DNA of 64,000 bases from an uncultured bacterium (GCA_964387845.1 CAYLXA010000008.1:32001-96000), one strand, 5' to 3'; shown: positions 7,847 to 52,573, numbered from the stretch's first letter. The notes: generated by a model not told the origin, from the sequence alone. A program made the numbers and translations.

Positions 7847-7876
7847 ATTTAGAAGAAAGGTTAAAGGATATTGATT

Positions 7877-35647: not shown

Positions 35648-35676
35648 TTGAGTTTTATCAGTTTTCGAGATATAAT
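35648..35676 (+). promoter_or_regulatory. near-consensus sigma70 promoter TTGAGT-17-TATAAT for the giant gene
   Basis: ttgagttttatcagttttcgagatataat in a 150-nt AT-rich tract, about 40 nt upstream of GTG 35716. Confidence 0.55.
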
Positions 35677-35715: not shown

Positions 35716-38700
35716 GTGCGCAAAAAGCCATTTTTCATCAAAGCAATTGCCCTAGCGCTTTGCTTTACTTTTATCGCTACCGATACCATCGCTTATTCCG
35801 ACGCAGCTCAGACATCTCCGCAACTGGCGGAGATGCTGAAGCAGTCCTCGAACTGGTTGAGTTTGAGGGCCGCTACCATTTCGGGACTTTTCCGCAACGC
35901 CGCACCTTCTGTTTCCGGTACGCGTTTACCTGCCGCAGCTCCCAAGTTCGCCCGTTACTTGTCAGAACTTCGAAATGAAGCCAATGAAAAACCGGTTACG
36001 GCTGACTACATATCCGCTCAAACAATTCAGAATCAAAAAACCAATGAAATTACGCCTCCGCCTCAATCTGAATTACGCCAAGAGAAGCCCAGATTTAAAT
36101 CGCGGCACAGCTTTTTTAACCATGCCATACAGTTAAGCCGCAACTTATTCAAGCTTTCAGAGTGGAAACACCGGATTTTGAGATTGTCCAGCAGCTTCGG
36201 AAACCTTCCAGATGACATTCTGTTTCTAGTTACAACTCTTCCCATATTGATCGGAATATTGATAGTGGATGCTCTTGATAATTTTCATGATAACCCCAAA
36301 ACAAACGCAAGAATATGGTTCTGGGTTGTTACGAGTTCAGCGGTGTGGCTCTTCTCAGTGTTAACTGCCAATGTTGTTTTATTCAGATTTCAGAAACCTG
36401 CAAAAAGAAAATTGCCGGCAAAATCTGATCAGAAAGTTCAACGATCTGAATTGCGCGGCCATTCGGGCGTAGGGAGTTATGTCATTGGCGATTTGGAATT
36501 TAATAAAGGTGATCCAACCGGCTTTGAATTGATTAAACGGTTGATCGGAGAAGTAAGAGCAGGTCTTTTAACCGGCGAACTTCAAAAAGCCGGCTTGGAT
36601 CAAGATTCTATTTCACATATATTCCGGCTTGCTTCTTCGCCTAGTAAAAGTGCGCGCGAGCCAATTGGTTTCAAATACAGTGAAGCGGCCGGTCAGTTTG
36701 AGCTGATTAAAAATGATTTGCGCACCTATCTTCATCAGCTTCAGAAAACACAAAATCATGATCACGAAATCAATGTTTATGCGCTTGGGTTAGGCAATCT
36801 TCCGGTTGAAGCAGAGGAAGTCATCAAGTTGTTTCTGAACGTCATGGAAGAGGAGCTTGGCGAAGCAGCCAAAAATTGGTCTTTTAATTTTATCGGAATT
36901 GATTTTCAAGACGAACCCATCAAAGTCGCGCGAAAATACTTTGCAGAAGATATGGCTTCTCTAAAAGAAAAAGGATTCCGGAAAGTCACTTTACAAGCTG
37001 TGAAGGCAAACGCACTGTCATCTTCAGAGCTGACGCGGGTATTTGAAGAAACGGGTGGCTCTAAGAAAGCAGACTATTTATTTCATCGGCATGTGATGTA
37101 TGTAAACCGTGCTTCAAGTTGGTTAAATCAGCTTCGAGGCCTCACTCCTATCACGATGTTACGGCCTGTGCTTGCTGACGCGTTGGAGTCGTACCTTCAA
37201 TCACAGAATTTGATCGGCGCATTTACAAAAACAGGTACACGTTATGTTATTGAACCTCTCGCCAGCTCAGACCCAAGCATACGGGAAGTTGTCATTCCGG
37301 GATCCAGCGTTTTGCCGCAGGAAAATGGCGCAGCCGGCAGCGGGATTTATATTGTGAATGACCCCGCCGTTTTTACAGCAACCGGCTTCATTCAATATCT
37401 CCAGGATCAGCTTGGAGAAAATTTCTCCATCTCCGGCCCTCTTCGGGTCGATCGGACTGGAGGCCGGGGAGAGCTGCGCCGGGCTTCGAATTTTCATTTT
37501 GTAAACACAGTACGCAGAGTGTTGCGGCGGGAAATCGCCCAAATAGAAAAAGACAAGTGGCAAAACTGGGCAGTTGGTTTTGAGCCTGTGCAAGATGTTG
37601 CAAGCCACCTTGTCCGCGGTGCAAAGGGCGAGCTATGGATTCATTTGCACTTAACCTACCACGGACATGATAAACGTGCTCGTTTCGCCGAAAATGGCGT
37701 CTATGACTTGGGATTGCTTTTCCGGATAACCGATCGAGAGAATCAATTAACTCTTGATGCCCCCATGATTGAACCGCAAATAGGCCGGTCTGACTATTTT
37801 GCTTTTACACGCGCCGAAACGGTGCTTTCTTCCGAGCAGGCGGCCCGGCTTGTGAAGGAGGGAACGGAATTTGTCAATTCGCACGCCGGTCCGATCCGCA
37901 GTGCAATGCGTCTTGCCAAGAAAAAACCGAGCTCAATTCATAATCTATTGGGCCGTGCAGTATCGCCCCGGCACGCACGAGGCCTTTACAACATGATGAC
38001 ATTAGGGCATGAGGAAAAGCGTGTGATTGACCGTACAAAAAGGCGCTCGGTTACTTATCGGTTTGTGGGCAGCCGGCGAAGCGAGCTGCGTCAAAAATCG
38101 GAATTAGATTCGGCCCGAGAGTTTGTGGCTCACGCTATCCAAACCGGCCAATTGAAATTAGATCTGTTTGATCGGGGAAGGGAGCCTGCAAAACAAATTC
38201 TTCAGGAAGTTTTAGCTGAAAATCAAAAGCGAAAAACGGATCATATTCAAGAAGTCGAAACCGCAAGGCACAAAATAGCAACTTTCGAATCAAGGTTCAA
38301 AAAAATCCGTGATGAAATTGATTTTGACCCGTTTAAACCTCTGGCGCCGACGGAGCAGGAAAAAATCATGGAATGGTGGGCTGATGACCTGTACATGATG
38401 GAATATGAAATCAGAAATTATTTAGCCGAAATTCAGTCGGGGCAGCATCCGTTTTCAGGAAACGAATTGGATCAAGTAGTGGATGCTTTAATAGCCGCTT
38501 ACCGGTGGAGTATGGATGTTGTTGCTTTTTTTGAAAAACAAAAAGCAGAACTATTATTCTTTCGAAATCAAGAGACCACCGACAGCGAAGAGTCGGCCGA
38601 TACCATGGCGGCACTTTCAGGCGCATTTTCAGTTTTAGCCGACATCAAATCTCCGCGCGGACAAATCCCGGAAAATGTTTTTTTTGCCATAGCTGCAACC

Positions 38701-41700
38701 AAGCGCCACAAAGCGAAAGAATTTTTACTTTCTGTTCTTCGTGAGATTGGTTTCGATAAAACAAAATCCGAAACCCAGAAAATCGTGAGAGGAAGGGCGC
38801 TTAATTATCTGTTTGCCCACTTTCACAGCTCGGAACTTGCAGCACTGGCCCGGCAGGCAATTGAAAATTTAGGCAGAGAGCAAAGATTTGATTACGATGG
38901 CTGGGCATTTGATAGCGCGTTCATGGAACTTTTGCCTTATCTCGGAGATGAGAATGTTAAAGCGTATATTTTTAATTACTTAAAAGATGATTTTCAATTC
39001 GGAAAAGCTCTCGAAGCTGGGAACTGTTTGGAATACTTGCTGTTCGATTTAGAAACCGCGGAGGTCCCGGGTTGGTTTAAGGAGCGCTTGCAGATTTATT
39101 CGGAAAAAAATGCAGCGGCTATGGATGATTTTGGAATTACGGAAAATCAGGAAGCCTATTTAAATCGAATTAAAAAATTAAATGATTTTCTAGCTCTAAA
39201 AGAAGCCGGAATCGGGCTGCCGTCTTATCAATTTTCAAAATACGTTTTTCGGCCTATTCATTCACAGGATGAAATAGACACACTGCGCAAAATGAGCGGT
39301 TCATTTCCCGGACGACGCCCTGGTTGGAGCCCATGGGATATGACCGATTTTGTATTGGAAGATAGCAAGACCCGTCAAATTGTCGGAGGCGGCATGATTT
39401 CGGAGCATGACTACGACACAGAAGCGCACCATATTCATCTTGTTGCTCTGAGTGACCAGCTGCAAGGCCGGGATAGGGCAGATGCGTTTGTGTTTATTCT
39501 CGCCGGCATGTTGCAATCCATGTCGCCAAAAATCAAAGGCCGGAAAGTTGTTTGGCGCACATGGGTAAAAGATATTCTGGAAAAGACACTCGCGCTTGAT
39601 TTGGCGGGCGTTGATTTAGAACCTCTCATCAATCAAAACCCTGATGATGCACGCTCGGAATTGCTCAGTAAGCCTGAATCGCAGAATCCTATCCTCGAAA
39701 TCAATCAAGATTGGCGAAACATTTTTGATGACAACGCAAAACCGCTGGTGGTGGATGTCGGGTTCGGAAACGGAGAAACACTGCTTTACCGAGCACAGCA
39801 CGAGCCGGACAAAAATTTCATCGGTATCGAACTTCCCGAAGAGCCGTATGCGGATATGCTGGCTGAAAGGATTCAAACAGTGGGAATCAAAAACCTAAAA
39901 GTCCTCAAAGTGGCTGATTTTGAGGCATTTCGCACTCAACTCAAATTCGGGAACCAAGCAATCGTTTCAGAGCTAACTTATTACGATCCGTTTCCGGATA
40001 GTCCTTATGTATTTAGAGAACATACCGCTGATTTACAGCAAATTTTAAAACCCGGCGCGCTCGTTAAAATCATGGTTTTTGAACACGAATTTTGGCAAGA
40101 ACTGTCCGGCATTTTTGAATCCAACGGATTTCAAACGCTAAATCCTGCCGACCATGTTTTTGAGGATAATCATGATACGCAGGATTCAAATGAGGCATTT
40201 AGCACTCAACTGAAACTTATTTTCCGATGGCCCGGTCTATCATCAAATCGTTCCGAATTGCGCCAAGACCTCAAAATTCAGACGATTCTAAACGATATTG
40301 CCCAAAGCAGATTGATTTCGGAGAATCAGCCGGAAACTCGGTCTTTTTTTAATAGAATTTCGGATCGGTTAAAACAAAAATCAGTTTCCCAAACTTTCTT
40401 TTTGACCGGATTGTTACTTTCATCTTATGTCTATATTTTATTCGAGCGCTGGCTTGCTGCCGAGCCGGTCGAATCGAATGCTCAAGAAATAGCTGCCGCC
40501 ATTTTACTATTGGGCATTATTTCTACGATTTTTACCACGATCGTTAAGAGAATGAATAAGTCTAGTACATCCTGGCGCTGGGATGTTATTAGCTTTTCGG
40601 AAAATCAAATCATAGAAGATGCATTGACTTTTCTGGACCCTCACAAACATCAATTAAATCCCAATGTGGATATTATTGTTGAGAAAAGAAGCCACAGGTT
40701 TAAGCGTATTGCCATCGGATTTTTCAAAGAAAGTTTAAAAAATCTTGGCGCCGGTGCAATGTTTTTATTGATAGGAGGCTTTTTAGCTTGGAAAATTGGA
40801 TACGGCCTTCTTGATTTGTACAAGCAAGACCTGCACGCTGCATTTAAAGTCCCTGTCTATGGCATATTCGGCGCGGGGCTGATTGTGTTTGGTTTTGTGG
40901 GCATGATGGGATTTACCGTGCTTTTTCTATCTCCGTTCATTGCTCTTATGCAGGCTTGGGATGGAGAGTTTTCAGATAAGGGAATCGAGGACCAAAGAAT
41001 TTTTGTCCAGCACCAAGAATCCGAAGATGTTTTTTACGAGACGCTAGTTGAAGAATTAAATCACCGTTTCAAACTCCGCCGAGAGCCGCTTCCGGAGTTT
41101 CCAAAAACACTGGATGGTTTGCGGCTCGCCATGATACTCAAACGCTACGGCCTCCCCGGCAGTGAAATTGCGAATCGTTCCGCCTCCGGCCTCCTCCGGG
41201 TCTTGCGCCCTGAAGGGTCAGAGACCGCAGACCGTAACGCTCTCCGAGCCAACGGCTCGATGGAGCCGAGGGCACGGGGGGAACTTCGGCAGTCGGAACC
41301 TCGGAAGATGAGCAGGGCTGAGCTCGCCTCTTTATTCAGGGCGCAGCTACGCGAGGCGAATTTCATTGCATCGATACCGGTGTTGATACAACACGTATGG
41401 AATGTAATCGCCAAATTAGCAAAGCCCCTCAACTTCCAGTTTCGCGAACTAGGCCTAACGCAAGAGCTCCTCCGTTTGCAGACAGGGTTTTGGATCACCC
41501 GATTTGGGCCTGAAGACCGGATGTGGTGGGGACTCCGCGACGGCATGAAGTTCGGAGATACCGTTAATTGGTGGGGGCCTAAACAAAAAAGACCGGAGCC
41601 CCTGGGTTTTCATACCGGGATTGATTTTGTGATGTATCAAAATTTTCAAAAGGCCTGGAAAACAATTCCGGAAGGAACCGAAGTGCAGGCACTCTACGGA

Positions 41701-44700
41701 GGCACGGTGGTTTCCGTATTTCAAGACGACATGCAGAGCACCCTTGTTGTCAATCAAGAGATTACCGATACAGACGGAGGAAATACGCTGGTCACCATTT
41801 ATGCGCACATAGAGCCGGAAACTAACGTTCAGCCGGGCGTAAAAATTGAGGCTGGCGATGTCCTGGGCCGAATCAGGCGGTCGCGCAATGAGCGTTCGAT
41901 TGTTTCGCCTCATCTTCACTTATCGATCGGATGGGCAAAGCCCGAATTTTTTGAACGTCTCAAAAGCGACGGCGTCGATTGGCCGTTTGTGGATGCTTTG
42001 GCAAAAGAAGGCCTTCTGACTTATGTCGATCCGCTTACATTTTTGGATAAAAATGAAGCCGATCATTTTTTTATGAATGCCCAGCACAACAAATTAAAGA
42101 AAATTCTGATTCTAAATACACAGCCAGGCGCTCAATTTTTTCTGACCCGGCAAGTGATTGAAAAACAATTTCCCGGTGTCACGACACTCGCTGTAAGAAG
42201 TTTTGAAGAAGCGCAGAAAATTTTAAATGACCCGTCCAGCGAAATTGATGCGGTAGTCCGTGTTGACGAATCGGCATCAATCAGTTTCCCTAGAAAATAT
42301 TTAAAACGCACGGCCGTTTTAGATTATCAAGAAAAAAACAAAAGAGAATTCTTACGCCAACTGCATGTCGTGAATGTGATCGGCCGCTTGTATCACGAAC
42401 CGATCAGCCGTCTCAACATTCGCTACCGGCTTCAGCGGCGCATCCGTCAGGCGGGAATCCGGACAGTGGGGCAATTGGTTGACCTTGCCAACCTGCCGAA
42501 GAAATTTCGAAAGTTTACAACGGGCCTTTCTAAAGTTCCGGAGGGCCTTGAGCGCCGTTTGCAAGGCTCTCGCTACAAGGATGAGATCATCCGCGCAATC
42601 GTCTCTGTCCAGCCCCAGGCCATTCTGACACGCTCCATTTTGCACAGGCGGTCGCTTGGATTTTTCCAAATGGCGTACCGACTCACATTTGGATTTGAAT
42701 ACCATCCCGAGACGCGCAATTTTGCGGAGCTGATTTTATTCTTAAATGGTTTATCCGGCAGTGTTTTCAAAGAGCTGGTCAAACAATTTGACGTCCATAT
42801 TCAAACCGATTTAATCGATATTTTGCAGCGTGTTGCTCGGATTGCGCCCGAAGCCATTTCTGTCAACGTTCTGGAGATGTTTATCGATGACGAAGAGACT
42901 CCCAAGCGCATGCGCGAAAATTTCAATACCCTGGCAGATTTAATTCACATGGCAAGGAATGATACCAAACGGTTTAAGGAGATTTTTGGATATCAAATTT
43001 CATGGCATGTTTTGCTCTTGCTTCTTGAAATTCTTTACGATGCGGTTCCGGGAGAAATCATGTGGCAGGAATGGCCTGACCTTGTCCACACCGTTCTGAA
43101 TCCGCACAATCTTCCACGCACATTCGGCAGCGGCGGGTTAAGCGGGCATATCAACGCTTACTCAGCGGCCATTCAAGCACATTGGCGCCGGTTGATGGCG
43201 GAGCATAAGGGATATGCAAAAAGAAAAGACCGCTCAGAACTTCGGCAGGCGGGAGATCGGCAAATTTTCCAGAGGGCATTTCAGGGAATTGCTTTCGGTG
43301 GATATGGAGCGGGGCTTATTGCTGCGACTTGGCAGATGCTTACCGTTTATCCGCAAATGTTGAGGCCGTCCTTATTTGTGATTCTGCTTACCTGGAATTT
43401 CTATCAGATCGTGAAACTAATTCTCAAGCAGCCGTTTGTCAGTCAGGAAAAGATAAACCAAGAAAAGTATATTAACCGCCAACTTATCATTACCCATTTG
43501 CCGCAGCTTGGACTCATCAAGGCGCACATGCTAGCACCGTGGCTTGAGGCTTTTATGCAAGCGCCGGAAGTTGGGGCCTTGTTTTTGACGGTCTCCGGTT
43601 TGCTGGTTTCAAAATTGGCCTTTGACAGCTATCTGCGCAATGACGGCAGAGCATCGGGAAGGTCCGAATTGCGCACCAATGACCCGGAAGAGCCGAATGC
43701 CAAAAATCCACGCACGTCTACTTACGAGACTATTATCTCTAACCGCCCGCAAATGAACCCAACTGAAAGTAATACTGAACAAGCAAGCCTGTTCATGGCA
43801 CCGCTTGAAAACGTAACACCGGATGCGGTCCGGTGGCTTGACCGAGTGTTTAATAGCCGGCTTCCGAAGGGCCAGTATGTTTTTGTCGGTGTTGTTGTCG
43901 ATCGCAAAAGCAAAGACATCCAGGCTTTTCAGGATGGCGTTTACATGATTGCAAAATTTCTGGAAGTCGGCGGCGCATTTGAAGAAATCGGATTGAACGA
44001 GATCAAAAATAAAAAACTTCGCCGCAGAATCACGGCCGTCGGCAAAGGATCGTCGGTGCGCGTGATCGAATTTGCGAGTGTCGGCGGGGGCGATGATTAT
44101 GAAATTCCGCTGCGCCGCCTTCAGGGTGTAGTGGAAGATTATTACAGCAATGAACCGATTGTCTGGATCCCGATATCACCGGAAGGAGAACTTTCAAGCA
44201 CATTGGGCTGGAAGCCCAAAAACCGGGCTTTTCATTTGACGTTAGTGCATCAGGCACCGGAGCAAGAGCCGGAGGCGCGCTCTGAGCTTCGCAATGATGG
44301 TGGAATTATTCTTGAAGCCGGACAGCAAATCAAAGCGGTTGAAGGTTATCAAATGCAGCTTCAAGAAAACGGTAGCGTTGCATTTTACCGTGAACGGTTA
44401 AGCAGCCCTGAGCCGGACCCTGTTGAGGTAGTCAAACCCACCATGGCCGGCATGCCTGTTTATGATGAAGCAGGCAATATCATGGGCTATGTTGGCATCA
44501 CACATGACTTTGAAGGCCAAGGGGAAGATAGAAAATTAATTGCAAGAACCGCATTTTATCCGGAGCCTGAATTTGATATTGAGAAAACGCATGTGCCGTC
44601 TACATGGCCTGCTTGGGAGCTGCTCAAGGCGGTTGGGCTTTTGATTCCAAAAGAGGACGCGCATATTCTAAAAATTGAAGACATCAGCCAAACATCTGAT

Positions 44701-47700
44701 TCAAAAATTCACCGGATTACGGTGCGCGTACCGGAAGAGCAGAGTTTTCCGCTTCGCGGTATTGAAATTCTAGCACGCGAATTAATTGAGAATCCATCCG
44801 CTGAACAGCAGTTTGATCTTGTTTACAATGAGAAAGGACATTTGTTGGCTGTATTTCCCGTTTTTGGAAATGAAAATAGGGCCGCTGCGGAGGATGGCTT
44901 ATTTCTTGATGTCAGTCCGTACTATTTTGAAGTTCCGAAGGACATTCGAGGAGAGTCGAAACTCCTGATAGATCAATTTTTGCGCGAGTGGAGACAAAAC
45001 CAACAGCATATCCAAGCCTATCAAAAAAAGCATTTCGGTTCTAATCGGATGAATTTCTGGCATTTTAGTTATAACAATGACGAAAATAATGATGAAGATA
45101 ATAAAGAGGAGCCTCTTTATCAGTTTTATCATTTACTTCATAGTCACGGCCATGATCTTAGTTATTTGGGGGAAGTTGAAGTTCAATCTTTGGAGCATAT
45201 TTTTTACTACGTTAGTAAAGATCCGGATAGGAAAATGTTATTGTTACCAATTTTCCCAACGGTCTTCCCGCCATCCGGCGATCCCCAGCACGACACGGAA
45301 TATCATAAGGCTATTTTGATCGATCCCAGATTTGATTTAAATGAGAATCAGCGGACTCTTGTGGTAGGTTCCGGAAGCGGATTTGACACATGGCTTGTTT
45401 CCCTCAAAACACGCAAGACCGTGAGTGTAATTGACATTAATCCACTGGCGGTAGCCAACACAAAAGCGCTTGCGAAAATTGCAGGCTTCAAAGTTTTAGC
45501 TAGAACGGCTGACAATATCGTCGATGAAAGCGGAAAGCCCACTTTTCCAGATGCCCGGTTTGATCGAATTATTTGGAATATGCCCGAGCATGTTGAAGGT
45601 GATGGGCCCAGCCACGGGCAATTAGCAACCCAAAGGACCAAGTGGTATTTAACAGATCATTGGGATGGCGACGTCGATGGTTTCAGCTTGACCCGGTTTG
45701 CTTCAGGGCTTTGCGACATTTTAAATCCTGACTCGCGCGTTTTAATTTGGAATTCGAATAACGAAGATTCAATTTTGAATGCCTTTGAAAACCGCGGCAT
45801 GGAAGTTGAACGTGCAGGCCTCAATTATCGGTACAGTTTGTATTTTATTCAACCATCTGCCGCTGCAGGCGAGCTTTTGGAACCGATTTCTAACTCTGCA
45901 GATCAACGAAGCGAACCTCAAAAACACATTGCCGTGCTTCAACGGTTCAAGCACAATCCGACCGGATTTATGGGGTGGCTCAAGAACGAAATCGCCGAAG
46001 TTTTGACAATCATTGACATGCCGAGCGGTCAGTTTATGAAACTGCCTGATGCGGAAAGAAGGAAGAAAAATCAACGTATTGAAAACGCAATTTCCATGCT
46101 TTACGGCGTAGAAGATTTTATTTCGGCTAAAGATGCGGCAAAAATTATCAAGAATATTGACGAGGCACGCCGCATGTTGGACGAGATTTACCAAATGTCC
46201 GAATGGCGTAAAAATGATTTTTCCGCTATCCGCGGAGGGAAGCAAGATTCCAAACTTCCGGCAAGCACCGAGCAAGCGTGGCACGCACGGGATATTTTTA
46301 ACGAATTTCTTCCGAAAAATGGGCTAGGAGAAGCGCTTCAGAAATACACGGGGGATAAAAAAGTATTGGATACCGCAGCGGAGAAATGGCTGCCTGTTTT
46401 TACGCGCGTTCCGAAACATTTATTCATGCCGAAATATTTGCGGCAGGATGCTTATTTGCATGATGCGCCGTACCGAATCGGTTATGGCCAGACAATCTCA
46501 CAACCGTCTCTGGTTGCATTTATTCTGGCGCTGCTTGATTTAGAGCCCTCGGATGAAGTTTTGGAAGTCGGCGCAGGCAGCGGATGGTTGGCCGCGCTGA
46601 TGTCGCAGCAAGCGGCGCATGTCTATGCGACAGAACTCATTCCGCAGCTTGCGGGCCGTGCGGAGCGGGTGATTGAGAATATGGGAATTCAAAATGTCAG
46701 CATTGTTGAAGCCGATGGTTCGGTTGGTTATCCACAGGCGGCTCCGTTCGATAAAATCGTCGTTTCAGCCGGCAGCCCCAATGTTCCGGAACTGCTTGTG
46801 AACCAGCTCCGCGAAGGAGGCTTGCTGATCATTCCGGTTTTGGATCCTGCAGCGTCAAAAAAGCAGAAGTCTTACAAGCTGACATTATTTGTGAAAGAAG
46901 GCGGTAAATTGACAGAAAAACTTGCCATCGATAGGGTTAATTTTGTTGATCTGCGCGGTGTGCACGGTTGGCAGCCGGCGCCAAAACGTTCCGAGCTTCG
47001 CCGAGCCGCACAGCCGAAAGATTCAAACAGTGAAAAATCAACGCCGAAGCCCGAGACCGAGTCAGACCGGCGCATCATCCGGGCAGTTAATTATTTTCTG
47101 AAAGAAAAGAGGCCATTCAATCAAGGCGATATCGCCAAAAAAGCAAGAGTCAGCTTGCAAACGGTTACAAACCGGAAGCACGCAAATCCGTCGATCGCTC
47201 GGTTTGTTGATTGGGCCCTGGAGAAAGCGCCTAAGGCTGAGCCTAAATCCGTTCAAGCTCTAATCCGGGCCGCAAAGCAGTTGAAAAAAGAAGGAAAATC
47301 GGGCGTGACCAATTCAGTTGTTGCGGACCTAGCCGGTTATCATCCACAAACCGTTACCAGCATAAGCAAGTTATATCCTAAGGTAAAACAAGCTGTGCAG
47401 GGGGCGCGTCAATCTCCGCACGCACAGATTTCTCCCACGATTCAGAAAGTTGTGGATGTTATTAAAGCGGCCGCGAAGAAAAAACAAGTGTTTCAAAACG
47501 AAGGCCAAATCGCGCAAGCAGCCGAAATCAGGCCTGAAACGTTGAGCCGGATTAAGAAGCGGCGGTCCTCCTATCGGGAACCATTTCTCCAACTGCTTCA
47601 ATACGCCGTAAGCGACCCGGACCGTGCGCTTGAGATCATTAAAAAACACTTCTCGATTCATTCCGAACAGCGGGTTTCTGTCCAAGCATCCGCTCAAGAC

Positions 47701-50700
47701 GAGAACTTGAGGTCGGAACTACGGGCTGACGGTGCTATCCAAGATCCGGGCATGGTCGTTACGGCTTTGATCGGGGTAGCCGCATTCGGAATCCTGATTT
47801 TTGGTTTTGATTCAGTCCGAGAGCGGGCATTTAAAGTTGGAAGTGCTGCACTCAAATTGATCCGCCGACTCTTCTGGCTATGGACCGGTGTTTTGTGGAT
47901 TTCCACCCATTTGGCTTACGCTGCTCATCGTGTCCGCCCGGATTCTCAAGATAAAATTTACCAAGCAACAGGTTTTGACCCCGGCGATCTAAATTATTCA
48001 GAGTTTTTGTATCCATGGGCTATTTTTACCGTGTTTATTTATCCCGTTGCCGCGTTCGGCTTGATGCGTTACCTGAATCGCTTGGTCATGCGCCGAAACG
48101 TTCTGCCATTCGAAACTTCGCCCTCAAGGTCCATTCCGGCTCACCCTACAACGTCCGAGTTAGATATTAATCGGAAAGTCGGGACGGCCCAGCCTTCCGA
48201 TCAATATTCAAAAGATCCTTTAATGAAAGGCAGGGCTGAACTCAGAGCGTCGGGTTCGAATCCCAAGAAGAAAGACACAAGTAAAGCAACGGACTTGGAA
48301 AAAAGGTTTAAGGAACTTTTGGAAGAGGCAGATAGAACGCTTGAGGCAAACAAACAACTTGAGGATGGACTTGATGAAATCCACAAAGTGCTGCCGGAAT
48401 TACCCAAAGACATCATCGATGGACGCTCCGAGCTGCGCCAATCTGACCCGATTGGCACTGCTTCGGCTTTGCCAGGCCCTCTGGCAAAGTCCGAGCTGCG
48501 CAATTTCTTGCCGAATCAGAACCCGATCAACCGTTTGGACGCCAAGCAAGGTTCCGGAATTGGTGCACGGGGCAACGTTTTGGAAGGCCGTTCCGGATCA
48601 AATTCTGAGTTTTATAATTATCGGGGCGAAAAAGTACTTGTACTGCCGACTAGCACCGCAAAAGGAATATTAGGTTTGGGTGATTTTATCGTTGTGATGC
48701 CACGCCCCAAGCCCGGCACGCAAGATCACATTCTCTTTTATAATTCGTCCGGCAGTTTGTTGTTTGAAGCAGTGAACGTTTCAGACTATTCGTTAGTAGG
48801 AGAAAATATGGCCATTAAATTTGCCAACGGCAATATCCAGTTTTATGACAAGACAGGCAAGAAGCTACTTAGTTCATTCGATCATTTTTCAAACTTTCAC
48901 CCAAGCCAAATTGACTTACAGGGCGATTTATTGGTATTTAAAAAATCAAGCAATGAGGTTGGTTTTTATAATTCGACAGGTTCACTTATTTTACGAAAGT
49001 CAAAAGGCACTGATTTTGACAGTTTTTATGTGAAAGGTTCATTTATCGTATTGGTTAAAAAAGATAATCACCATGTCTACAGTGGGCTTACAGGTAAGCT
49101 GATTGCAAAAACCCAGGCAAGCGTGGGTGAAACCGCGCAATTTGACGGCGACTTTTTTGCTGTGGTTAATTGGAATGAATTTACATTCTATAATCTTCAA
49201 GGGAAAAAAATTCTTGAGAAACGAACAGGTTCAGGTGACGATAATTTTATTAACTGGTCCGGCGAAGGCGGCCTTTTGACTTTTGATAAAACACATTCCC
49301 GGACGTTTTACGATGAAAACGGGAAGTTATTAGCTGCCATCCAAAAGCGTGTATTCGCTTCCAGAGTTGTCAACAAAGTGTTGCGCTTAGAAGACAACGC
49401 TGATTTTTATGAATGGTACGATTTCAGCCCTAATGCGTTATCGGCGTCTTCAAAAGGACAAAAATCGCTTGATCAAATTTTTAGCCATAACCCGGCCATG
49501 CTCTCGCGGATCCGGGATTATGTAAAAAGAAGGTACGATAATCCGCTCATGTCGCGCGAAGAGCCGAACCACGATCTTTCATCCGACCTGGATGACGCAT
49601 CGAATTTGATTCAATTGGAAAAAATGCCAACCGAATGGATTGACGACCTCTCATCCTTGGTTTTAACCGGTTACAATCCGTCGGACAAGGGCGCGCGTTC
49701 AATTTTAAAGGAAGCCGCGATTCAGCTTGGATTGATTCAAGCTCCGTCATCTCAAACGAAAGAAGCGGTTCCCATTACCTATAACCAAAAAGCGCTTATG
49801 CGGATCTTAAGCAGCGGTGTCATTACGGAAGCCATCCGAAACGGGCAATTTTCCTTTCCAACAACAGGTAAGAGAAGTAGTCTTATTTTTCTTTCTGACG
49901 ATGGAACCAATGTAAAGAGGATTGATGAAACGGATTCTGCTAAAGCCAACGTGCAGCTCGAATTTTATCTGTCGAGCGATAATCGCACAGTGGGTGTGTC
50001 CATCAGTGTCCGAGATGATAATAAGGCAAGTGGGTGGCGAGTACAGCATGAAGAACCTAAGCAACTCAAAGATCTTCAGACATCCATTGAACCTGCAAGC
50101 TCGAAACCCTCGTTGACTATTGTTAGCGCGAGAAAACAACGCACCCTTGATGAATTGATAAACAAAGTGAGCAAGTTCCCAGGTTGGAGCAATCCTGGCC
50201 CTTCAACATATTCTTTCGCTCATCAGGCAACGCAGATATCTGCTTTCTATACCGGAATTGTCCCTAACTTGCAACCACGCTGGGCATGGCATTTAAAAGT
50301 GATCTCGTCTGGTTATAACCTAAGCGTTGTTGTTGAAGATCATATTCAATCGCCAGGGAAATGGATAACGGTAGTTAAATTTAATAACTCCGGAAGTAAT
50401 AATTCTGTGGCCTCGCAAGAATGGGGTAACCATCTGATCGATATTGAACAAAATGGTTTAAAAACAAATATCTACATGACGAAGGCTTATGTGGATTCTT
50501 TGGTCAAAAACAGAATCCCGCTTAAAGGTGCAACTATAGATGGAGTTGAGTGGGAATTTATTCCGATCAATCCGAAACAAATTCTTCCGGCAAAATCAGA
50601 ATTGAGAACCCAAGCAGAGCAGGTTTCTATAGAAACGCTGGATGCGGCGCTTTCGGTGGAGCCCAAAGCACAAAACAGGTTGGATGCCGTCATTCATGAA

Positions 50701-51261
50701 ATCCGGAATAATTCATCAAGTGCCGTACGTTCAGAATTAAAAGTTCAGAGCGAGAAATTGGTTCAATTTTTAACCGGCGGACAAAATAGAGCCACGTCAT
50801 TGTCGGGCACTGCCGAAGCTGCCAACGCGCGCTCGGCGTTTGTCTTTTTGCCCGGAACCACCAATGAGCTGGGCGCTGTTTTTAACCAGATTACAGAAGC
50901 TCTTGCCGCCAAAAGCGAATTGAGAGCCGAAATCATTGCTTACGTGGATGGCCCGTTGATGGCGCGCACAATCCGTGAAATCATCCTCGGTGTTCAGGGC
51001 GCTGAGCGTGTCCATATCGTGGCGAGTAATGAAGAGGCCGTGGCTAAAGCTCAGTCTCTAAACGTTGCGCATGCACATTTGATCGGATGGGAGGGGGAGC
51101 TTGAAGCGCCGTTTGTCCAAAATTTGGAGGACAGCTACCTGAAGCTCGGTATTCGCGTGGTGAAGAAAAATGTAAGTGATTTCATGAGTTTTCTCGGGCG
51201 TGAGGCCGCTCGTTTTATCCAAGGATGGAAATCAGCAGTTCTCTACGCCAAATCCGCATAA
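35716..51261 (+). CDS. giant multidomain secreted/membrane protein (5181 aa): signal peptide, 4 TM clusters, two class-I SAM-MTase folds, M23 peptidase, protein-L-isoaspartate O-methyltransferase domain, 3x HTH, beta-repeats; ~18 [RK][SGA]EL[RK] linker motifs
   Basis: Single uninterrupted ORF of 15.5 kb. GTG start with a signal-peptide-like N-terminus (MRKKPFFIKAIALALCFTFIATDTIAYS). Domain motifs are listed as separate features. Confidence 0.9.
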   Translation: MRKKPFFIKAIALALCFTFIATDTIAYSDAAQTSPQLAEMLKQSSNWLSLRAATISGLFRNAAPSVSGTRLPAAAPKFARYLSELRNEANEKPVTADYISAQTIQNQKTNEITPPPQSELRQEKPRFKSRHSFFNHAIQLSRNLFKLSEWKHRILRLSSSFGNLPDDILFLVTTLPILIGILIVDALDNFHDNPKTNARIWFWVVTSSAVWLFSVLTANVVLFRFQKPAKRKLPAKSDQKVQRSELRGHSGVGSYVIGDLEFNKGDPTGFELIKRLIGEVRAGLLTGELQKAGLDQDSISHIFRLASSPSKSAREPIGFKYSEAAGQFELIKNDLRTYLHQLQKTQNHDHEINVYALGLGNLPVEAEEVIKLFLNVMEEELGEAAKNWSFNFIGIDFQDEPIKVARKYFAEDMASLKEKGFRKVTLQAVKANALSSSELTRVFEETGGSKKADYLFHRHVMYVNRASSWLNQLRGLTPITMLRPVLADALESYLQSQNLIGAFTKTGTRYVIEPLASSDPSIREVVIPGSSVLPQENGAAGSGIYIVNDPAVFTATGFIQYLQDQLGENFSISGPLRVDRTGGRGELRRASNFHFVNTVRRVLRREIAQIEKDKWQNWAVGFEPVQDVASHLVRGAKGELWIHLHLTYHGHDKRARFAENGVYDLGLLFRITDRENQLTLDAPMIEPQIGRSDYFAFTRAETVLSSEQAARLVKEGTEFVNSHAGPIRSAMRLAKKKPSSIHNLLGRAVSPRHARGLYNMMTLGHEEKRVIDRTKRRSVTYRFVGSRRSELRQKSELDSAREFVAHAIQTGQLKLDLFDRGREPAKQILQEVLAENQKRKTDHIQEVETARHKIATFESRFKKIRDEIDFDPFKPLAPTEQEKIMEWWADDLYMMEYEIRNYLAEIQSGQHPFSGNELDQVVDALIAAYRWSMDVVAFFEKQKAELLFFRNQETTDSEESADTMAALSGAFSVLADIKSPRGQIPENVFFAIAATKRHKAKEFLLSVLREIGFDKTKSETQKIVRGRALNYLFAHFHSSELAALARQAIENLGREQRFDYDGWAFDSAFMELLPYLGDENVKAYIFNYLKDDFQFGKALEAGNCLEYLLFDLETAEVPGWFKERLQIYSEKNAAAMDDFGITENQEAYLNRIKKLNDFLALKEAGIGLPSYQFSKYVFRPIHSQDEIDTLRKMSGSFPGRRPGWSPWDMTDFVLEDSKTRQIVGGGMISEHDYDTEAHHIHLVALSDQLQGRDRADAFVFILAGMLQSMSPKIKGRKVVWRTWVKDILEKTLALDLAGVDLEPLINQNPDDARSELLSKPESQNPILEINQDWRNIFDDNAKPLVVDVGFGNGETLLYRAQHEPDKNFIGIELPEEPYADMLAERIQTVGIKNLKVLKVADFEAFRTQLKFGNQAIVSELTYYDPFPDSPYVFREHTADLQQILKPGALVKIMVFEHEFWQELSGIFESNGFQTLNPADHVFEDNHDTQDSNEAFSTQLKLIFRWPGLSSNRSELRQDLKIQTILNDIAQSRLISENQPETRSFFNRISDRLKQKSVSQTFFLTGLLLSSYVYILFERWLAAEPVESNAQEIAAAILLLGIISTIFTTIVKRMNKSSTSWRWDVISFSENQIIEDALTFLDPHKHQLNPNVDIIVEKRSHRFKRIAIGFFKESLKNLGAGAMFLLIGGFLAWKIGYGLLDLYKQDLHAAFKVPVYGIFGAGLIVFGFVGMMGFTVLFLSPFIALMQAWDGEFSDKGIEDQRIFVQHQESEDVFYETLVEELNHRFKLRREPLPEFPKTLDGLRLAMILKRYGLPGSEIANRSASGLLRVLRPEGSETADRNALRANGSMEPRARGELRQSEPRKMSRAELASLFRAQLREANFIASIPVLIQHVWNVIAKLAKPLNFQFRELGLTQELLRLQTGFWITRFGPEDRMWWGLRDGMKFGDTVNWWGPKQKRPEPLGFHTGIDFVMYQNFQKAWKTIPEGTEVQALYGGTVVSVFQDDMQSTLVVNQEITDTDGGNTLVTIYAHIEPETNVQPGVKIEAGDVLGRIRRSRNERSIVSPHLHLSIGWAKPEFFERLKSDGVDWPFVDALAKEGLLTYVDPLTFLDKNEADHFFMNAQHNKLKKILILNTQPGAQFFLTRQVIEKQFPGVTTLAVRSFEEAQKILNDPSSEIDAVVRVDESASISFPRKYLKRTAVLDYQEKNKREFLRQLHVVNVIGRLYHEPISRLNIRYRLQRRIRQAGIRTVGQLVDLANLPKKFRKFTTGLSKVPEGLERRLQGSRYKDEIIRAIVSVQPQAILTRSILHRRSLGFFQMAYRLTFGFEYHPETRNFAELILFLNGLSGSVFKELVKQFDVHIQTDLIDILQRVARIAPEAISVNVLEMFIDDEETPKRMRENFNTLADLIHMARNDTKRFKEIFGYQISWHVLLLLLEILYDAVPGEIMWQEWPDLVHTVLNPHNLPRTFGSGGLSGHINAYSAAIQAHWRRLMAEHKGYAKRKDRSELRQAGDRQIFQRAFQGIAFGGYGAGLIAATWQMLTVYPQMLRPSLFVILLTWNFYQIVKLILKQPFVSQEKINQEKYINRQLIITHLPQLGLIKAHMLAPWLEAFMQAPEVGALFLTVSGLLVSKLAFDSYLRNDGRASGRSELRTNDPEEPNAKNPRTSTYETIISNRPQMNPTESNTEQASLFMAPLENVTPDAVRWLDRVFNSRLPKGQYVFVGVVVDRKSKDIQAFQDGVYMIAKFLEVGGAFEEIGLNEIKNKKLRRRITAVGKGSSVRVIEFASVGGGDDYEIPLRRLQGVVEDYYSNEPIVWIPISPEGELSSTLGWKPKNRAFHLTLVHQAPEQEPEARSELRNDGGIILEAGQQIKAVEGYQMQLQENGSVAFYRERLSSPEPDPVEVVKPTMAGMPVYDEAGNIMGYVGITHDFEGQGEDRKLIARTAFYPEPEFDIEKTHVPSTWPAWELLKAVGLLIPKEDAHILKIEDISQTSDSKIHRITVRVPEEQSFPLRGIEILARELIENPSAEQQFDLVYNEKGHLLAVFPVFGNENRAAAEDGLFLDVSPYYFEVPKDIRGESKLLIDQFLREWRQNQQHIQAYQKKHFGSNRMNFWHFSYNNDENNDEDNKEEPLYQFYHLLHSHGHDLSYLGEVEVQSLEHIFYYVSKDPDRKMLLLPIFPTVFPPSGDPQHDTEYHKAILIDPRFDLNENQRTLVVGSGSGFDTWLVSLKTRKTVSVIDINPLAVANTKALAKIAGFKVLARTADNIVDESGKPTFPDARFDRIIWNMPEHVEGDGPSHGQLATQRTKWYLTDHWDGDVDGFSLTRFASGLCDILNPDSRVLIWNSNNEDSILNAFENRGMEVERAGLNYRYSLYFIQPSAAAGELLEPISNSADQRSEPQKHIAVLQRFKHNPTGFMGWLKNEIAEVLTIIDMPSGQFMKLPDAERRKKNQRIENAISMLYGVEDFISAKDAAKIIKNIDEARRMLDEIYQMSEWRKNDFSAIRGGKQDSKLPASTEQAWHARDIFNEFLPKNGLGEALQKYTGDKKVLDTAAEKWLPVFTRVPKHLFMPKYLRQDAYLHDAPYRIGYGQTISQPSLVAFILALLDLEPSDEVLEVGAGSGWLAALMSQQAAHVYATELIPQLAGRAERVIENMGIQNVSIVEADGSVGYPQAAPFDKIVVSAGSPNVPELLVNQLREGGLLIIPVLDPAASKKQKSYKLTLFVKEGGKLTEKLAIDRVNFVDLRGVHGWQPAPKRSELRRAAQPKDSNSEKSTPKPETESDRRIIRAVNYFLKEKRPFNQGDIAKKARVSLQTVTNRKHANPSIARFVDWALEKAPKAEPKSVQALIRAAKQLKKEGKSGVTNSVVADLAGYHPQTVTSISKLYPKVKQAVQGARQSPHAQISPTIQKVVDVIKAAAKKKQVFQNEGQIAQAAEIRPETLSRIKKRRSSYREPFLQLLQYAVSDPDRALEIIKKHFSIHSEQRVSVQASAQDENLRSELRADGAIQDPGMVVTALIGVAAFGILIFGFDSVRERAFKVGSAALKLIRRLFWLWTGVLWISTHLAYAAHRVRPDSQDKIYQATGFDPGDLNYSEFLYPWAIFTVFIYPVAAFGLMRYLNRLVMRRNVLPFETSPSRSIPAHPTTSELDINRKVGTAQPSDQYSKDPLMKGRAELRASGSNPKKKDTSKATDLEKRFKELLEEADRTLEANKQLEDGLDEIHKVLPELPKDIIDGRSELRQSDPIGTASALPGPLAKSELRNFLPNQNPINRLDAKQGSGIGARGNVLEGRSGSNSEFYNYRGEKVLVLPTSTAKGILGLGDFIVVMPRPKPGTQDHILFYNSSGSLLFEAVNVSDYSLVGENMAIKFANGNIQFYDKTGKKLLSSFDHFSNFHPSQIDLQGDLLVFKKSSNEVGFYNSTGSLILRKSKGTDFDSFYVKGSFIVLVKKDNHHVYSGLTGKLIAKTQASVGETAQFDGDFFAVVNWNEFTFYNLQGKKILEKRTGSGDDNFINWSGEGGLLTFDKTHSRTFYDENGKLLAAIQKRVFASRVVNKVLRLEDNADFYEWYDFSPNALSASSKGQKSLDQIFSHNPAMLSRIRDYVKRRYDNPLMSREEPNHDLSSDLDDASNLIQLEKMPTEWIDDLSSLVLTGYNPSDKGARSILKEAAIQLGLIQAPSSQTKEAVPITYNQKALMRILSSGVITEAIRNGQFSFPTTGKRSSLIFLSDDGTNVKRIDETDSAKANVQLEFYLSSDNRTVGVSISVRDDNKASGWRVQHEEPKQLKDLQTSIEPASSKPSLTIVSARKQRTLDELINKVSKFPGWSNPGPSTYSFAHQATQISAFYTGIVPNLQPRWAWHLKVISSGYNLSVVVEDHIQSPGKWITVVKFNNSGSNNSVASQEWGNHLIDIEQNGLKTNIYMTKAYVDSLVKNRIPLKGATIDGVEWEFIPINPKQILPAKSELRTQAEQVSIETLDAALSVEPKAQNRLDAVIHEIRNNSSSAVRSELKVQSEKLVQFLTGGQNRATSLSGTAEAANARSAFVFLPGTTNELGAVFNQITEALAAKSELRAEIIAYVDGPLMARTIREIILGVQGAERVHIVASNEEAVAKAQSLNVAHAHLIGWEGELEAPFVQNLEDSYLKLGIRVVKKNVSDFMSFLGREAARFIQGWKSAVLYAKSA
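39718..40095 (+). other. giant protein domain: class-I SAM-dependent methyltransferase fold (TrmB-like; VVDVGFGNGE...IGIE)
   Basis: aa ~1335-1460; motif I VDVGFGNGE and a post-I acidic residue. Confidence 0.6.
41578..41940 (+). other. giant protein domain: M23 (LytM-type) metallopeptidase
   Basis: aa ~1955-2075; HTGIDF (HxxxD) ... GDVLGRI ... SPHLHLSIGW (HxH). Confidence 0.7.
45328..45750 (+). other. giant protein domain: second class-I SAM-MTase fold (LVVGSGSGFDTW...VIDINP)
   Basis: aa ~3205-3345; glycine-rich motif I and a DxN/P motif. Confidence 0.55.
46423..46875 (+). other. giant protein domain: protein-L-isoaspartate O-methyltransferase (PIMT/Pcm)
   Basis: aa ~3570-3720; IGYGQTISQPSLVAFILALLDLEPSDEVLEVGAGSGWLAALMS closely matches the PIMT consensus (GxTISQP...VLEIGTGSGY). 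Confidence 0.75.
47083..47595 (+). other. giant protein region: three tandem helix-turn-helix-like units
   Basis: aa ~3790-3960; FNQGDIAKKARVSLQTVTN / VTNSVVADLAGYHPQTVTS / QNEGQIAQAAEIRPETLSR. Confidence 0.5.
48613..49395 (+). other. giant protein region: ~5 beta-strand repeats (FY[ND]xxGxLL..., WG-repeat-like)
   Basis: aa ~4300-4560; FYNSSGSLLF, FYDKTGKKLL, FYNSTGSLIL, FYNLQGKKIL, FYDENGKLLA with ~50-aa periodicity. Confidence 0.5.
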
Positions 51262-51307: not shown

Positions 51308-52573
51308 ATGAGTCAATCAAGTAAGCTGTTCCAGCAGTCTAAAACACATTTCCCGGGAGGTGTGAATTCACCGGTACGGGCGTTTCGTGCTGTCGGAGGA
51401 TCGCCGCGTTTTATTGCGAAAGCCAAAGGGCAATTTATTTGGGACGCAGACGGCAAAAAATATCTCGATTTCTGCCAGTCTTGGGGCCCGATGATTTTGG
51501 GCCACGCGCATCCGAAAGTAGCGAAAGCAATCTCCGATCAAGCCAAAAAAGGAACGAGTTACGGCGCGCCGACCGAAAATGAATCGAAACTTGCTTCCTT
51601 AATTAAAGAAGCATTTCCATCCATTCAGAAAATGCGGTTTACGTCATCCGGCACGGAAGCCGCGATGTCCGCAATCCGGGTTGCGCGCGGATTCACGAAA
51701 CGGAAGAAAATCCTCAAATGCGACGGCTGCTATCATGGCCATAGCGATTCGTTGCTTGTGAAAGCCGGCTCGGGTGGTGCGACATTCGGTGTTCCGGATT
51801 CGGCCGGTGTGCCGGAAGACCTCGCGAAGCTCACGATTACGATTCCGTACAACGATTTTGACGCGCTTGAGCGTATATTTAAAAAAGAAGGAAAAAACAT
51901 CGCTGTTTTTGCTCTGGAGCCCGTTCCGGCCAATATGGGCGTTGTATTGCCAAAACCCGGCTTCCTGGAGTTTGCGAGGGCCCTGACTAAGAAATACGGC
52001 ACTTTGCTCATGTTTGACGAAGTCATTACGGGTTTTCGCATCGCTTTTGGCGGTGCGCAGGAATATTACGGAATTAAAGCTGATCTCACATGCCTAGGAA
52101 AAATCGTAGGCGGCGGGCTTCCGATCGGTGTTTTCGGCGGCCGCGCAGACATTATGAGCAAAATTTCACCGGAGGGGGCTGTTTATCAAGCCGGAACTTT
52201 GTCGGGAAATCCTCTGGCGACTGCGGCCGGCATTGCGACCTTGACGGAATTAAAGAAAAAGGATTTTTACAAGCAGCTTAATATCAAGGCTCTTGAATTT
52301 TTCGGGATGCTGGATGATGTGTTCGAACGGGGAAGTTATCCGGTAACGCTCAACCGGATCGGCTCCATGTTCACAATTTTTTGTACACCAAACCCCGTAT
52401 TTGATTACGAGTCCGCAAAATTTGCACATCCGGAGTGTTACGCCCAAATGTTTCAAAGTTTGCTTTCCAAAGGGGTTTATTTCGCGCCGTCACAGTTTGA
52501 AGCCAACTTTATTTCACAGGCAATGACACGCGAAAATCTTCAAAAAGTCGTTTCAGTTATTTCTCGTTTTTAA
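51308..52573 (+). CDS. hemL: glutamate-1-semialdehyde 2,1-aminomutase HemL
   Basis: PLP-dependent aminotransferase class III motifs (MFDEVITGFR, active-site K in ...LGKIVGGGLP); 421 aa. Confidence 0.9.
   Translation: MSQSSKLFQQSKTHFPGGVNSPVRAFRAVGGSPRFIAKAKGQFIWDADGKKYLDFCQSWGPMILGHAHPKVAKAISDQAKKGTSYGAPTENESKLASLIKEAFPSIQKMRFTSSGTEAAMSAIRVARGFTKRKKILKCDGCYHGHSDSLLVKAGSGGATFGVPDSAGVPEDLAKLTITIPYNDFDALERIFKKEGKNIAVFALEPVPANMGVVLPKPGFLEFARALTKKYGTLLMFDEVITGFRIAFGGAQEYYGIKADLTCLGKIVGGGLPIGVFGGRADIMSKISPEGAVYQAGTLSGNPLATAAGIATLTELKKKDFYKQLNIKALEFFGMLDDVFERGSYPVTLNRIGSMFTIFCTPNPVFDYESAKFAHPECYAQMFQSLLSKGVYFAPSQFEANFISQAMTRENLQKVVSVISRF

Follow-up and report, generated by a model that had tools for sequence, protein, structure and literature searches.

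The 64,000-nucleotide (nt) stretch of DNA from an uncultured bacterium that forms the window of this analysis (GCA_964387845.1 CAYLXA010000008.1:32001-96000) raises the question of what is made from a single 15.5-kb gene that stands between the housekeeping genes acs and hemL. The uninterrupted open reading frame (ORF) that an earlier note had read there is borne out: one frame on the plus strand, from a GTG start at position 35716 to position 51261, encodes 5181 amino acids (aa) without an internal stop, and NCBIfam models identify acetate-CoA ligase before it (33420/33456-35462) and HemL after it (51308-52573). The giant protein is shown here to be built of protein-like units in a chain, with the pentapeptide RSELR, which is under selection, at each junction. 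The interpretation favored for this arrangement, to which a probability of roughly 0.45 is given, is that of a lineage-specific, hypervariable, Sec-targeted, and membrane-threaded polyprotein, the junction motif of which would be cut by a dedicated endopeptidase. The interpretation of the earlier note, a giant surface or predation/competition protein of an uncultivated lineage or else a polyprotein, is partly supported and points in the right direction, in that synteny suggests Omnitrophota and the junction motif supports the polyprotein option; it missed the RSELR copies and the hypervariability between relatives.

The giant ORF holds 14 copies of the tetrapeptide SELR and 17 of [SGA]ELR, every one of them in frame, where shuffles yield 0.15 on average and 3 at most, and with the degenerate copies SELL, GELL, and SELK the count in the ORF rises to 20, with the consensus [AG]-[RK]-S-E-L-R-[QNA]. 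The rest of the window, read in six frames, holds three matches only, one in a second long ORF and two on the minus strand outside long ORFs. The codons used for the motif vary (Ser as TCA, TCT, TCC, TCG, or AGC; Leu as CTT, CTG, CTA, TTA, or TTG; Arg as CGN or AGR), so that RSELR is not a DNA repeat, and an origin from a repeat or palindrome in the DNA is ruled out by the same variation. Because the encoding 15 nt are not conserved, the motif is selected at the amino-acid level in its own right. Its flanks are linker-like, with an excess of P, Q, A, R, and N and a deficit of W, C, F, M, and Y, and their disorder propensity lies above that of every one of 20000 random position sets. No motif copy falls inside a Pfam match, and all the clusters of transmembrane (TM) helices and all recognised enzymes are bracketed by two copies, e.g. 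the TrmB-like methyltransferase unit, which spans 195 aa from motif to motif, and the protein-L-isoaspartate O-methyltransferase (PCMT), the profile match of which stops 13 aa ahead of a copy.

The surroundings of the gene are those of a conserved cluster. Its Acs shares 77-79% identity with the Acs of a Candidatus Omnitrophota metagenome-assembled genome (MAG), and the upstream order hemA-hemC-cobA/hemD-ALAD, followed by genes for a histidine kinase (HK), a response regulator (RR), an HK/RR, two further RRs, and acs, is common to three Omnitrophota MAG loci and two other MAGs. The Omnitrophota loci with the shared gene order (L002, L013, and L055) show 44-81% identity to the window, and conserved synteny together with best identities putatively places the locus in this phylum. 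In those MAG loci hemL follows directly after acs, with a gap of ~30-520 bp; since the two genes are otherwise adjacent, the giant gene is an insertion specific to its lineage, placed in a housekeeping cluster that is conserved.

The closest relatives show how this insertion changes. In a 136-kb JGI contig (L206) and another Logan run (L207), the neighboring genes are 73-91% identical to those of the window (Acs 91%), and a 5133-aa giant follows acs at the same place, in which the leader alone is homologous (aa 4-62 against aa 4-84 of the window protein, with 47% identity by BLAST and 54% in a separate alignment of the first 100 aa); the remainder of the 1761 aa available from it is not homologous to the giant of the window. 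It carries the motif copies PRAELRT, QKSELRT, DRSELRN, and RRSELR, and a Bac_transf domain at aa 102-266 lies between the copies at aa 79 and 291. In a further relative (L202, SRR18669186), HemL is 94.3% and MacB 91.3% identical, and the last 304 aa of the giant only 30.6%. This end holds three RSELR copies, two of which stand at aligned positions with different codons: AAA TCA GAA TTG AGA in the window against CGT TCG GAA CTT CGA, and AAA AGC GAA TTG AGA against CGT TCA GAA CTC AGG, i.e. 7-8 of 15 nt differ. The C-terminal unit, which is 38% identical between the two and ends in -AKSA in the window and in -AMSA in L202, shows no homology to other C-termini of the family by phmmer or jackhmmer. 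Judging from these alignments, the leader, promoter, and motif are kept while modules are exchanged between genus-level relatives. That a giant gene within a conserved housekeeping cluster can swap its content while its neighbors stay 73-94% identical is of wider significance, and the exchange at a conserved locus points to strong diversifying pressure and module exchange.

The motif is not confined to this gene. The second long ORF encodes a signal peptide, an N-terminal Tiki/ChaN-like domain of ~500 aa (IQDAH...LEG...RD..M...GGFH; hereafter the N-domain), and a TM-rich part that follows its motifs; with a GC content of 0.41 it lies below the remainder of the window, and its codon usage shows a correlation of 0.72. 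This N-domain defines a large metagenome family of long proteins, in that a DNA pattern derived from it recovered 120 metagenome stretches, in which 108 ORF fragments match the N-domain profile. Among recurrent gapped 5-mers, ‘RSE.R’ ranks first in five long ORFs that are independent of one another and come from different metagenomes, and ‘R.EAR’, ‘A.RLA’, and ‘G.SLG’ take that place in three others. The density of R[SA]E.R is 0.61 per 1000 aa in family ORFs as compared with 0.13 in other frames. The first copy comes 69-145 aa after the GGFH motif of the N-domain in 12 proteins of the R[SA]ExR type; in the four proteins with motifs of another kind, its distance from the N-domain is 94-224 aa. 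Inside the N-domain there is one chance match only (SELR, L147). What is bracketed may be an epimerase/dehydratase, a nucleoside diphosphate kinase (NDK), or a receiver domain (L106), and in L110 it is a complete hybrid histidine kinase (four PAS, HisKA, HATPase, and receiver) that is enclosed as one unit, from which it follows that the motif separates protein-sized units and not domains.

In other lineages the N-domain is followed by different short motifs, AARLA and G.SLG. Several types were seen, i.e. AARLA (6-9 copies), G[AQ]SLG (6 copies), and SSLG (P0104; L159 2769-12959; L093 1440-13424; L175), and RSELR, AARLA, and GASLG have in common that the first residue equals the last and that the fourth is Leu. 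One protein (L156 6018-13577) has ‘LK.LG’ 10 times and ‘GSHI’ and ‘KGLG’ six times each, for which a genuine tandem repeat domain is more likely than a junction motif. Proteins of the family also often end in -[SA]A-COOH (in the window -AKSA, at 51247-51258): this was seen in 8 of 13 long homologues and, among family ORFs that stop within the locus, in 12 of 29, as compared with 16 of 370 other frames. Such an end is similar to the left-hand half of the junction motif ([RK][SA]).

A second line of comparison is provided by the M23 unit of the giant, homologues of which were collected by an exhaustive HMMER search with aa 1513-2660 as the query. The other long proteins found share with the giant only this unit and carry recurrent motifs of their own: RSEQR in 10 copies (P0073, 5822 aa), RSExR in 5 (P0117, 2554 aa), xELR[ST] in ~9 (P0074, 5936 aa), RSELR in 2 (P0093, 949 aa), and AARLA in 7-9 (P0104, 3387 aa). 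In all six motif-bearing homologues (6/6) the M23 unit is flanked on both sides by the motif of its own lineage with none inside, the distance from motif to motif being 356-652 aa overall and 602-652 aa in the three longest proteins. Most long proteins with an M23 unit begin with a ~500-aa domain homologous to the N-domain of the second ORF. Complete motif-bearing members of the family that lack an M23 unit weaken this unit as a candidate for a cis-acting processing enzyme. A stand-alone M23 family of ~190-210 aa with a ‘PGMxFG..WW..R..PHEG.D’ N-extension (P0077-P0125) is widespread.

In the chain, ~15-20 protein-sized units are connected by linker-like stretches with [AG]-[RK]-S-E-L-R at each junction, the units comprising methyltransferases, PCMT, M23, helix-turn-helix (HTH) and beta-repeat units, four small membrane units, and several without a recognised family. 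In the polyprotein model, RSELR would be recognised by a dedicated endopeptidase, and the precursor would be cut at its junctions, such that one promoter and one translation event would yield a changeable set of separate proteins, much as in viral polyproteins or MARTX toxins. This reading is preferred because the units equal free-standing proteins, because equivalent junctions carry different motifs in different lineages, which would fit a co-evolving protease and site, and because the small units with TM helices only are understandable as separate membrane proteins.

As for the enzyme, the site would be read by the Tiki/ChaN-like domain that stands at the N-terminus of most motif-bearing members of the family and is here encoded in trans by the second ORF; this is the most plausible reader, and the assignment is speculative. 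Five of seven N-domains match Pfam PF04187 (ChaN, Tiki superfamily), with a best E of 5.4e-5, and the invariant residues of the N-domain are H17, E46, E206, and H427, i.e. two His and two Glu. A catalytic set of two His and two Glu is also that of RRSP, a site-specific endopeptidase of the TIKI family (PMC6254334). In its widest form, the model would hold that Omnitrophota and neighboring lineages possess a chromosomal polyprotein system with exchangeable cassettes and lineage-specific sites (R[SA]ExR; AARLA, G.SLG) that are cut by a co-evolving Tiki-like endopeptidase, the enzymes and small membrane proteins so released being a fast-changing set that is possibly delivered to a host or prey, or deployed against it, in a MARTX-like manner; this extension is put forward tentatively, as possible rather than probable.

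It has to be noted that a number of observations weigh against processing, or against the proposed reader. What was observed is the pattern of sites, from which we infer the cleavage itself, and to our knowledge there is no protease with RSELR specificity. Simple hydropathy counting places motif copies and S-adenosylmethionine (SAM)-dependent enzymes on both sides of the membrane; a single compartment-bound protease could therefore not reach all sites, and the methyltransferases that come to lie on the exported side would be without SAM. A conserved linker motif could, furthermore, act in binding or folding without any cleavage, and many long members of the N-domain family have no significant recurrent motif. 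With respect to the reader, the Pfam scores are sub-threshold, the N-domain of the second ORF itself scoring 14.5 with PF04187 as compared with a cut-off of 27.7; the hhalign comparison with the Ere-domain alignment, which pairs QDAH..LEG with EATHG..VEADW, has a probability of 10%; the N-domain profile found no match among PDB sequences; and the AF2 single-sequence model of the domain, with a pLDDT of 36.9, is unusable.

The main rival of the processing reading is an uncut, membrane-anchored multi-enzyme scaffold, in which RSELR would act as a docking motif (for a chaperone, targeting, or assembly factor) or as a folding insulator, such that adjacent units would stay independent of each other within one working chain. 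Such a role would suit a motif in linker-like sequence, and the fact that 5181 codons are kept in one frame, and again so in relatives, suggests that linkage or co-localisation matters. Published accounts likewise take the long proteins of Omnitrophota as single membrane-anchored chains, and no protease was identified from the PDB searches, the hhalign comparison, or the distribution of the M23 unit. The same features that favor processing speak against a scaffold, in that the units (PCMT, NDK, epimerase, and hybrid histidine kinase) correspond to complete proteins which elsewhere function on their own, the difference in motif between lineages is better explained by an enzyme and a site that co-evolve than by a generic linker, and no obvious spacer role can be seen for the four small units with TM helices only. 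An uncut scaffold is regarded as possible and as less probable than processing.

The view closest to the earlier note is that of a single envelope-anchored surface, predation, or competition protein with an M23 peptidase degrading cell wall. It would be consistent with the signal-peptide-like leader and the TM clusters, with the intact catalytic residues of M23, with the link that has been made between Omnitrophota giants and the degradation of prey cell walls, and with the extreme divergence between relatives, which fits an arms race. The ~200-aa stand-alone relatives of this M23 subfamily, however, lack a signal peptide in 36 of 36 cases inspected and appear, on this criterion, to be cytoplasmic, so that a cell-wall role is not a given and the reading of M23 as a cell-wall hydrolase has become doubtful. 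Moreover, most recognised units are SAM-dependent enzymes of a cytoplasmic type, the flanks are housekeeping genes and not the secretion, pilus, or glycoside-hydrolase genes found near published giants, and the motif is left unexplained. Taken together, these points make a single surface protein improbable.

A third explanation, which is compatible with processing, sees in the motif the protein-level footprint of a DNA junction for module exchange, i.e. of cassette shuffling. This would account for the complete difference in modules that genus-level relatives show at one locus, where leader and motif are retained, and for units that are shuffled among proteins with the motif at their borders. 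The 15 nt of the motif are not conserved, as seen from the aligned copies of L202, and the junction thus offers no substrate for homologous or site-specific recombination, which renders this origin of the motif very improbable.

Finally, the giant ORF is confirmed as real and not an artefact of assembly. Over 21 kb that include it, a Logan assembly is identical to the window, this being a second assembly that may come from the same reads, and the full-length protein is also present on a 108-kb NCBI contig. Its GC content (0.463) is even along its length and matches that of the neighbors, its codon usage correlates with that of the housekeeping neighbors at r = 0.86, and RSELR-type motifs are spread over the whole ORF, from aa 83 to aa 5067. 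The identical Logan assembly and the giant at the same locus in a relative rule out both a reassigned stop codon and a gene fusion made by assembly. An assembly chimera or sequencing artefact joining ordinary genes, for which nothing was found, although the second assembly may share the reads of the window, has a negligible probability in view of this identity, the uniform composition and codon usage, the motif throughout, the 5133-aa giant on both the JGI contig and the other Logan run, and a C-terminal end that is conserved beside hemL in L202.

With respect to the individual parts of the protein, the signal peptide and the four TM clusters are where the earlier note had placed them, with a hydrophobic N-terminal segment at aa 7-25 and hydrophobic clusters at aa ~168-222, 1560-1745, 2524-2636, and 4013-4120, all by hydropathy. 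Pfam and NCBIfam searches confirmed its M23, PCMT, and methyltransferase calls, and Pfam added a weak, methyltransferase-like fourth (aa 377-467, Methyltransf_31, E 5e-4 to 5e-3, below cut-off). The peptidase (Peptidase_M23, aa 1984-2071, E 3e-9 to 6e-10) scores 37-40 bits, above the PF01551 gathering cut-off of 28.7, and has the HxxxD and HxH zinc-binding motifs and the catalytic His; residues H52, D56, H117, H152, and H154 (H/D/H/HxH) are invariant in an alignment of 13 homologues. PCMT (PF01135, aa ~3556-3746, E 3e-48) is ~40% identical to ordinary PCMTs and scores 169.6 bits with TIGR00080, above the equivalog cut-off of 159.05, and 187.0 with NF001453, just under the cut-off of 188. This unit also matches the PADLOC model mad2 (window 46456-46920, aa ~3580-3735, E 2e-33), which looks like a fold-level match only, and no defence system is therefore inferred. 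The nearest relatives of the PCMT unit (P0001-P0064) are often fusions of 650-690 aa of PCMT with an erythromycin-esterase (PF05139, Tiki superfamily), an independent association of PCMT with Tiki.

The two further methyltransferase regions stand as folds and fall short of named enzymes. At aa 1342-1454, Methyltransf_4 is matched with an E of 1e-11 and is the only model that passes, at the level of the fold; the identity of a TrmB tRNA (m7G46) methyltransferase is not supported by TIGR00091 (51.1 as compared with 112.65) or by the other NCBIfam TrmB models, which are also below cut-off. At aa ~3207-3295, there is an MTS/HemK2-like match (Pfam MTS, E 3.7e-6; TIGR00537, E 7.5e-16, below cut-off). 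For the three HTH-like units (aa 3763-3999), all Pfam matches are sub-threshold (E 0.004-0.1). The beta repeats can be counted as six FY[ND]xxGxxL units at aa 4299-4531, spaced mostly by 35-41 aa with one gap of 74 aa, for which the Pfam matches (DUF5711 and MORN_2) are weak. About half of the giant has no match in Pfam, NCBIfam, or PDB sequences; PDB sequence searches with the M23 unit and the units of no recognised family gave no match, and no internal paralogy was found apart from the RSELR motif. A scan of genome contigs with the giant protein and a metagenome scan with the M23 alignment were without match, and word-indexed searches returned no homologue of the giant, nor did they return the query protein itself.

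Upstream of the giant, the near-consensus promoter proposed earlier corresponds to a promoter-like sequence: TTGAGT-17-TATAAT at 35648-35676, 40 bp before the ORF, has 10 of 12 matches, which by itself is at chance level (~0.9 matches this good per 700 bp in shuffles), and its -10 block, GATATAATTTA, is kept upstream of the syntenic giant in L206, as is a block resembling a ribosome-binding site, GAAAGGATT. Elsewhere in the window, 4313-9457 holds three consecutive beta-propeller-type genes, two of which match an SBBP/LipL53-like lipoprotein model and the middle one DUF5123, and 11759-13192 encodes an HtpX-type zinc metalloprotease with a C-terminal extension of ~170 aa (477 aa as compared with the typical ~290-300 aa). 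Two relatives have, between the OEP gene and ispH, a 728-aa Peptidase_S8+PKD gene with three small ORFs (L202 7527-9713; L204 3143-5329), which are absent from the window (55699-57402). The features of the giant and of the second ORF are collected in the table.

Table. Promoter, motif copies, and units of the giant ORF and motifs of the second long ORF (positions in the window; aa numbered within the giant protein)
Feature	Position	Strand	Basis or remark
Promoter-like TTGAGT-17-TATAAT	35648..35676	+	10/12 matches; -10 and GAAAGGATT blocks conserved in L206
Giant ORF, 5181 aa	35716..51261	+	GTG start
Signal-peptide-like leader, aa 1-28	35716..35799	+	hydropathy
Motif copy LSELR, aa 82-86	35959..35973	+	
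Motif copy QSELR, aa 117-121	36064..36078	+	
Unit with 2 TM helices, aa 122-243	36079..36444	+	hydropathy
Motif RSELR, aa 243-247	36442..36456	+	
Unit with weak methyltransferase-like match, aa 248-584	36457..37467	+	Pfam Methyltransf_31, below cut-off
Motif RGELR, aa 584-588	37465..37479	+	
Unit without recognised family, aa 589-788	37480..38079	+	
Motif RSELR, aa 788-792	38077..38091	+	
Unit without recognised family, aa 793-1313	38092..39654	+	
Degenerate motif RSELL, aa 1313-1317	39652..39666	+	
TrmB-like methyltransferase unit, aa 1318-1512	39667..40251	+	Pfam Methyltransf_4
Motif RSELR, aa 1512-1516	40249..40263	+	
Membrane unit, TM cluster 2, ~4 TM, aa 1517-1854	40264..41277	+	hydropathy
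Motif RGELR, aa 1854-1858	41275..41289	+	
M23 unit, M23 peptidase and conserved downstream domains, aa 1859-2506	41290..43233	+	Pfam
Motif RSELR, aa 2506-2510	43231..43245	+	
Membrane unit, TM cluster 3, aa 2511-2649	43246..43662	+	hydropathy
Motif RSELR, aa 2649-2653	43660..43674	+	
Unit without recognised family, aa 2654-2855	43675..44280	+	
Motif RSELR, aa 2855-2859	44278..44292	+	
Unit with HemK2/MTS-like methyltransferase, aa 2860-3384	44293..45867	+	Pfam MTS, TIGR00537
Degenerate motif AGELL, aa 3384-3388	45865..45879	+	
PCMT unit, aa 3389-3758	45880..46989	+	Pfam PCMT, TIGR00080
Motif RSELR, aa 3758-3762	46987..47001	+	13 aa past PCMT profile end
Unit with three HTH-like repeats, aa 3763-3999	47002..47712	+	sub-threshold HTH matches
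Motif RSELR, aa 3999-4003	47710..47724	+	
Membrane unit, TM cluster 4, aa 4004-4173	47725..48234	+	hydropathy
Motif RAELR, aa 4173-4177	48232..48246	+	
Motif RSELR, aa 4237-4241	48424..48438	+	
Motif KSELR, aa 4258-4262	48487..48501	+	
Unit with six FY[ND]xxGxxL beta repeats, aa 4263-4960	48502..50595	+	
Motif KSELR, aa 4960-4964	50593..50607	+	RSELR at aligned position in L202
Motif RSELK, aa 5005-5009	50728..50742	+	
Motif KSELR, aa 5066-5070	50911..50925	+	RSELR in L202, other codons
C-terminal unit, aa 5071-5181, ends -AKSA	50926..51258	+	38% identical to L202
Second long ORF	61001..64000, past window end	+	1564 aa in Logan gene call
Second-ORF motifs ARSEIR 62831-62845 and SRSELR 62876-62890	62831..62890	+	94 and 109 aa after GGFH

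With a conserved motif that can be counted, it becomes testable whether a bacterial giant is a single chain or the source of many cut products. The motif tells at which exact peptide termini metaproteomics would have to look, divides the chain at natural boundaries, along which structures can be predicted and ‘dark’ units annotated, and allows a simple k-mer test on all long ORFs already catalogued. Should it be true that the Tiki-like domain reads the site, it would represent a new class of bacterial site-specific processing proteases.

Among known systems, the very long, membrane-anchored ‘multi-enzyme’ proteins catalogued in Omnitrophota (Nielsen & Lui 2026, bioRxiv 10.64898/2026.06.07.730766; giants of this phylum also in West-Roberts et al. 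2023, bioRxiv 10.1101/2023.11.21.568195) show that the architecture, which the earlier note had taken as non-standard, is not unprecedented. The giant resembles them in its phylum, as judged by synteny, in its signal peptide and many TM helices, in its many unrelated enzyme Pfams (methyltransferases among the commonest) that are tiled along one chain and none of which dominates, and in a sequence that is mostly unique. It differs in its length of 5181 aa, half of the 10,000-aa threshold of that catalogue, and in its housekeeping flanks, where published giants have secretion, pilus, and glycoside-hydrolase genes. A recurrent junction motif is mentioned in neither paper, the 2026 text being without ‘motif’, ‘linker’, or ‘cleav’ (bioRxiv 10.64898/2026.06.07.730766; 10.1101/2023.11.21.568195), and in the earlier of the two the cleavage points of giant proteins are stated as not known, which blocked piecewise structure prediction (bioRxiv 10.1101/2023.11.21.568195). 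A search of the literature for the motif or for an Omnitrophota polyprotein found no description. Unlike in single-domain M23 and PCMT families, both enzymes are embedded as internal units of the chain, the M23 unit belonging to a subfamily with a GMxFG..WWG extension.

Polymorphic toxins such as CdiA and Rhs carry a short conserved boundary motif of the VENN type before a variable module, one per protein and with a conserved nucleotide junction. The giant is similar in that, in proteins that diversify rapidly, a short peptide stands at the borders of exchangeable modules, and differs in having ~20 boundaries, at which the DNA is not conserved. Viral polyproteins consist of one ORF with protein-sized units and a short lineage-specific protease site at every junction; the giant shares the single ORF, the protein-sized units, and a repeated short lineage-specific site, whereas it is a chromosomal bacterial gene between acs and hemL and is made of housekeeping-type enzymes and small membrane proteins. 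With MARTX toxins, in which the TIKI-family endopeptidase RRSP occurs (PMC6254334), it has in common a modular chain of unrelated enzymes (3.5-5 kAA in the toxins) with a repertoire that varies between strains. MARTX toxins are cut between modules by a dedicated protease, as we infer for the giant, and use type 1 secretion, whereas the giant has a Sec-type leader, internal TM clusters, and a fixed pentapeptide as the junction motif. Membership in this class fails, since neither the MARTX cysteine protease domain nor the repeat regions were matched by Pfam (whole protein at E <= 0.01; segments at E <= 1). The architecture is accordingly a smaller example of a known Omnitrophota kind, to which the junction motif, its generality, and the swapping of modules are new observations, and by analogy MARTX toxins and viral polyproteins would be its nearest functional counterparts.

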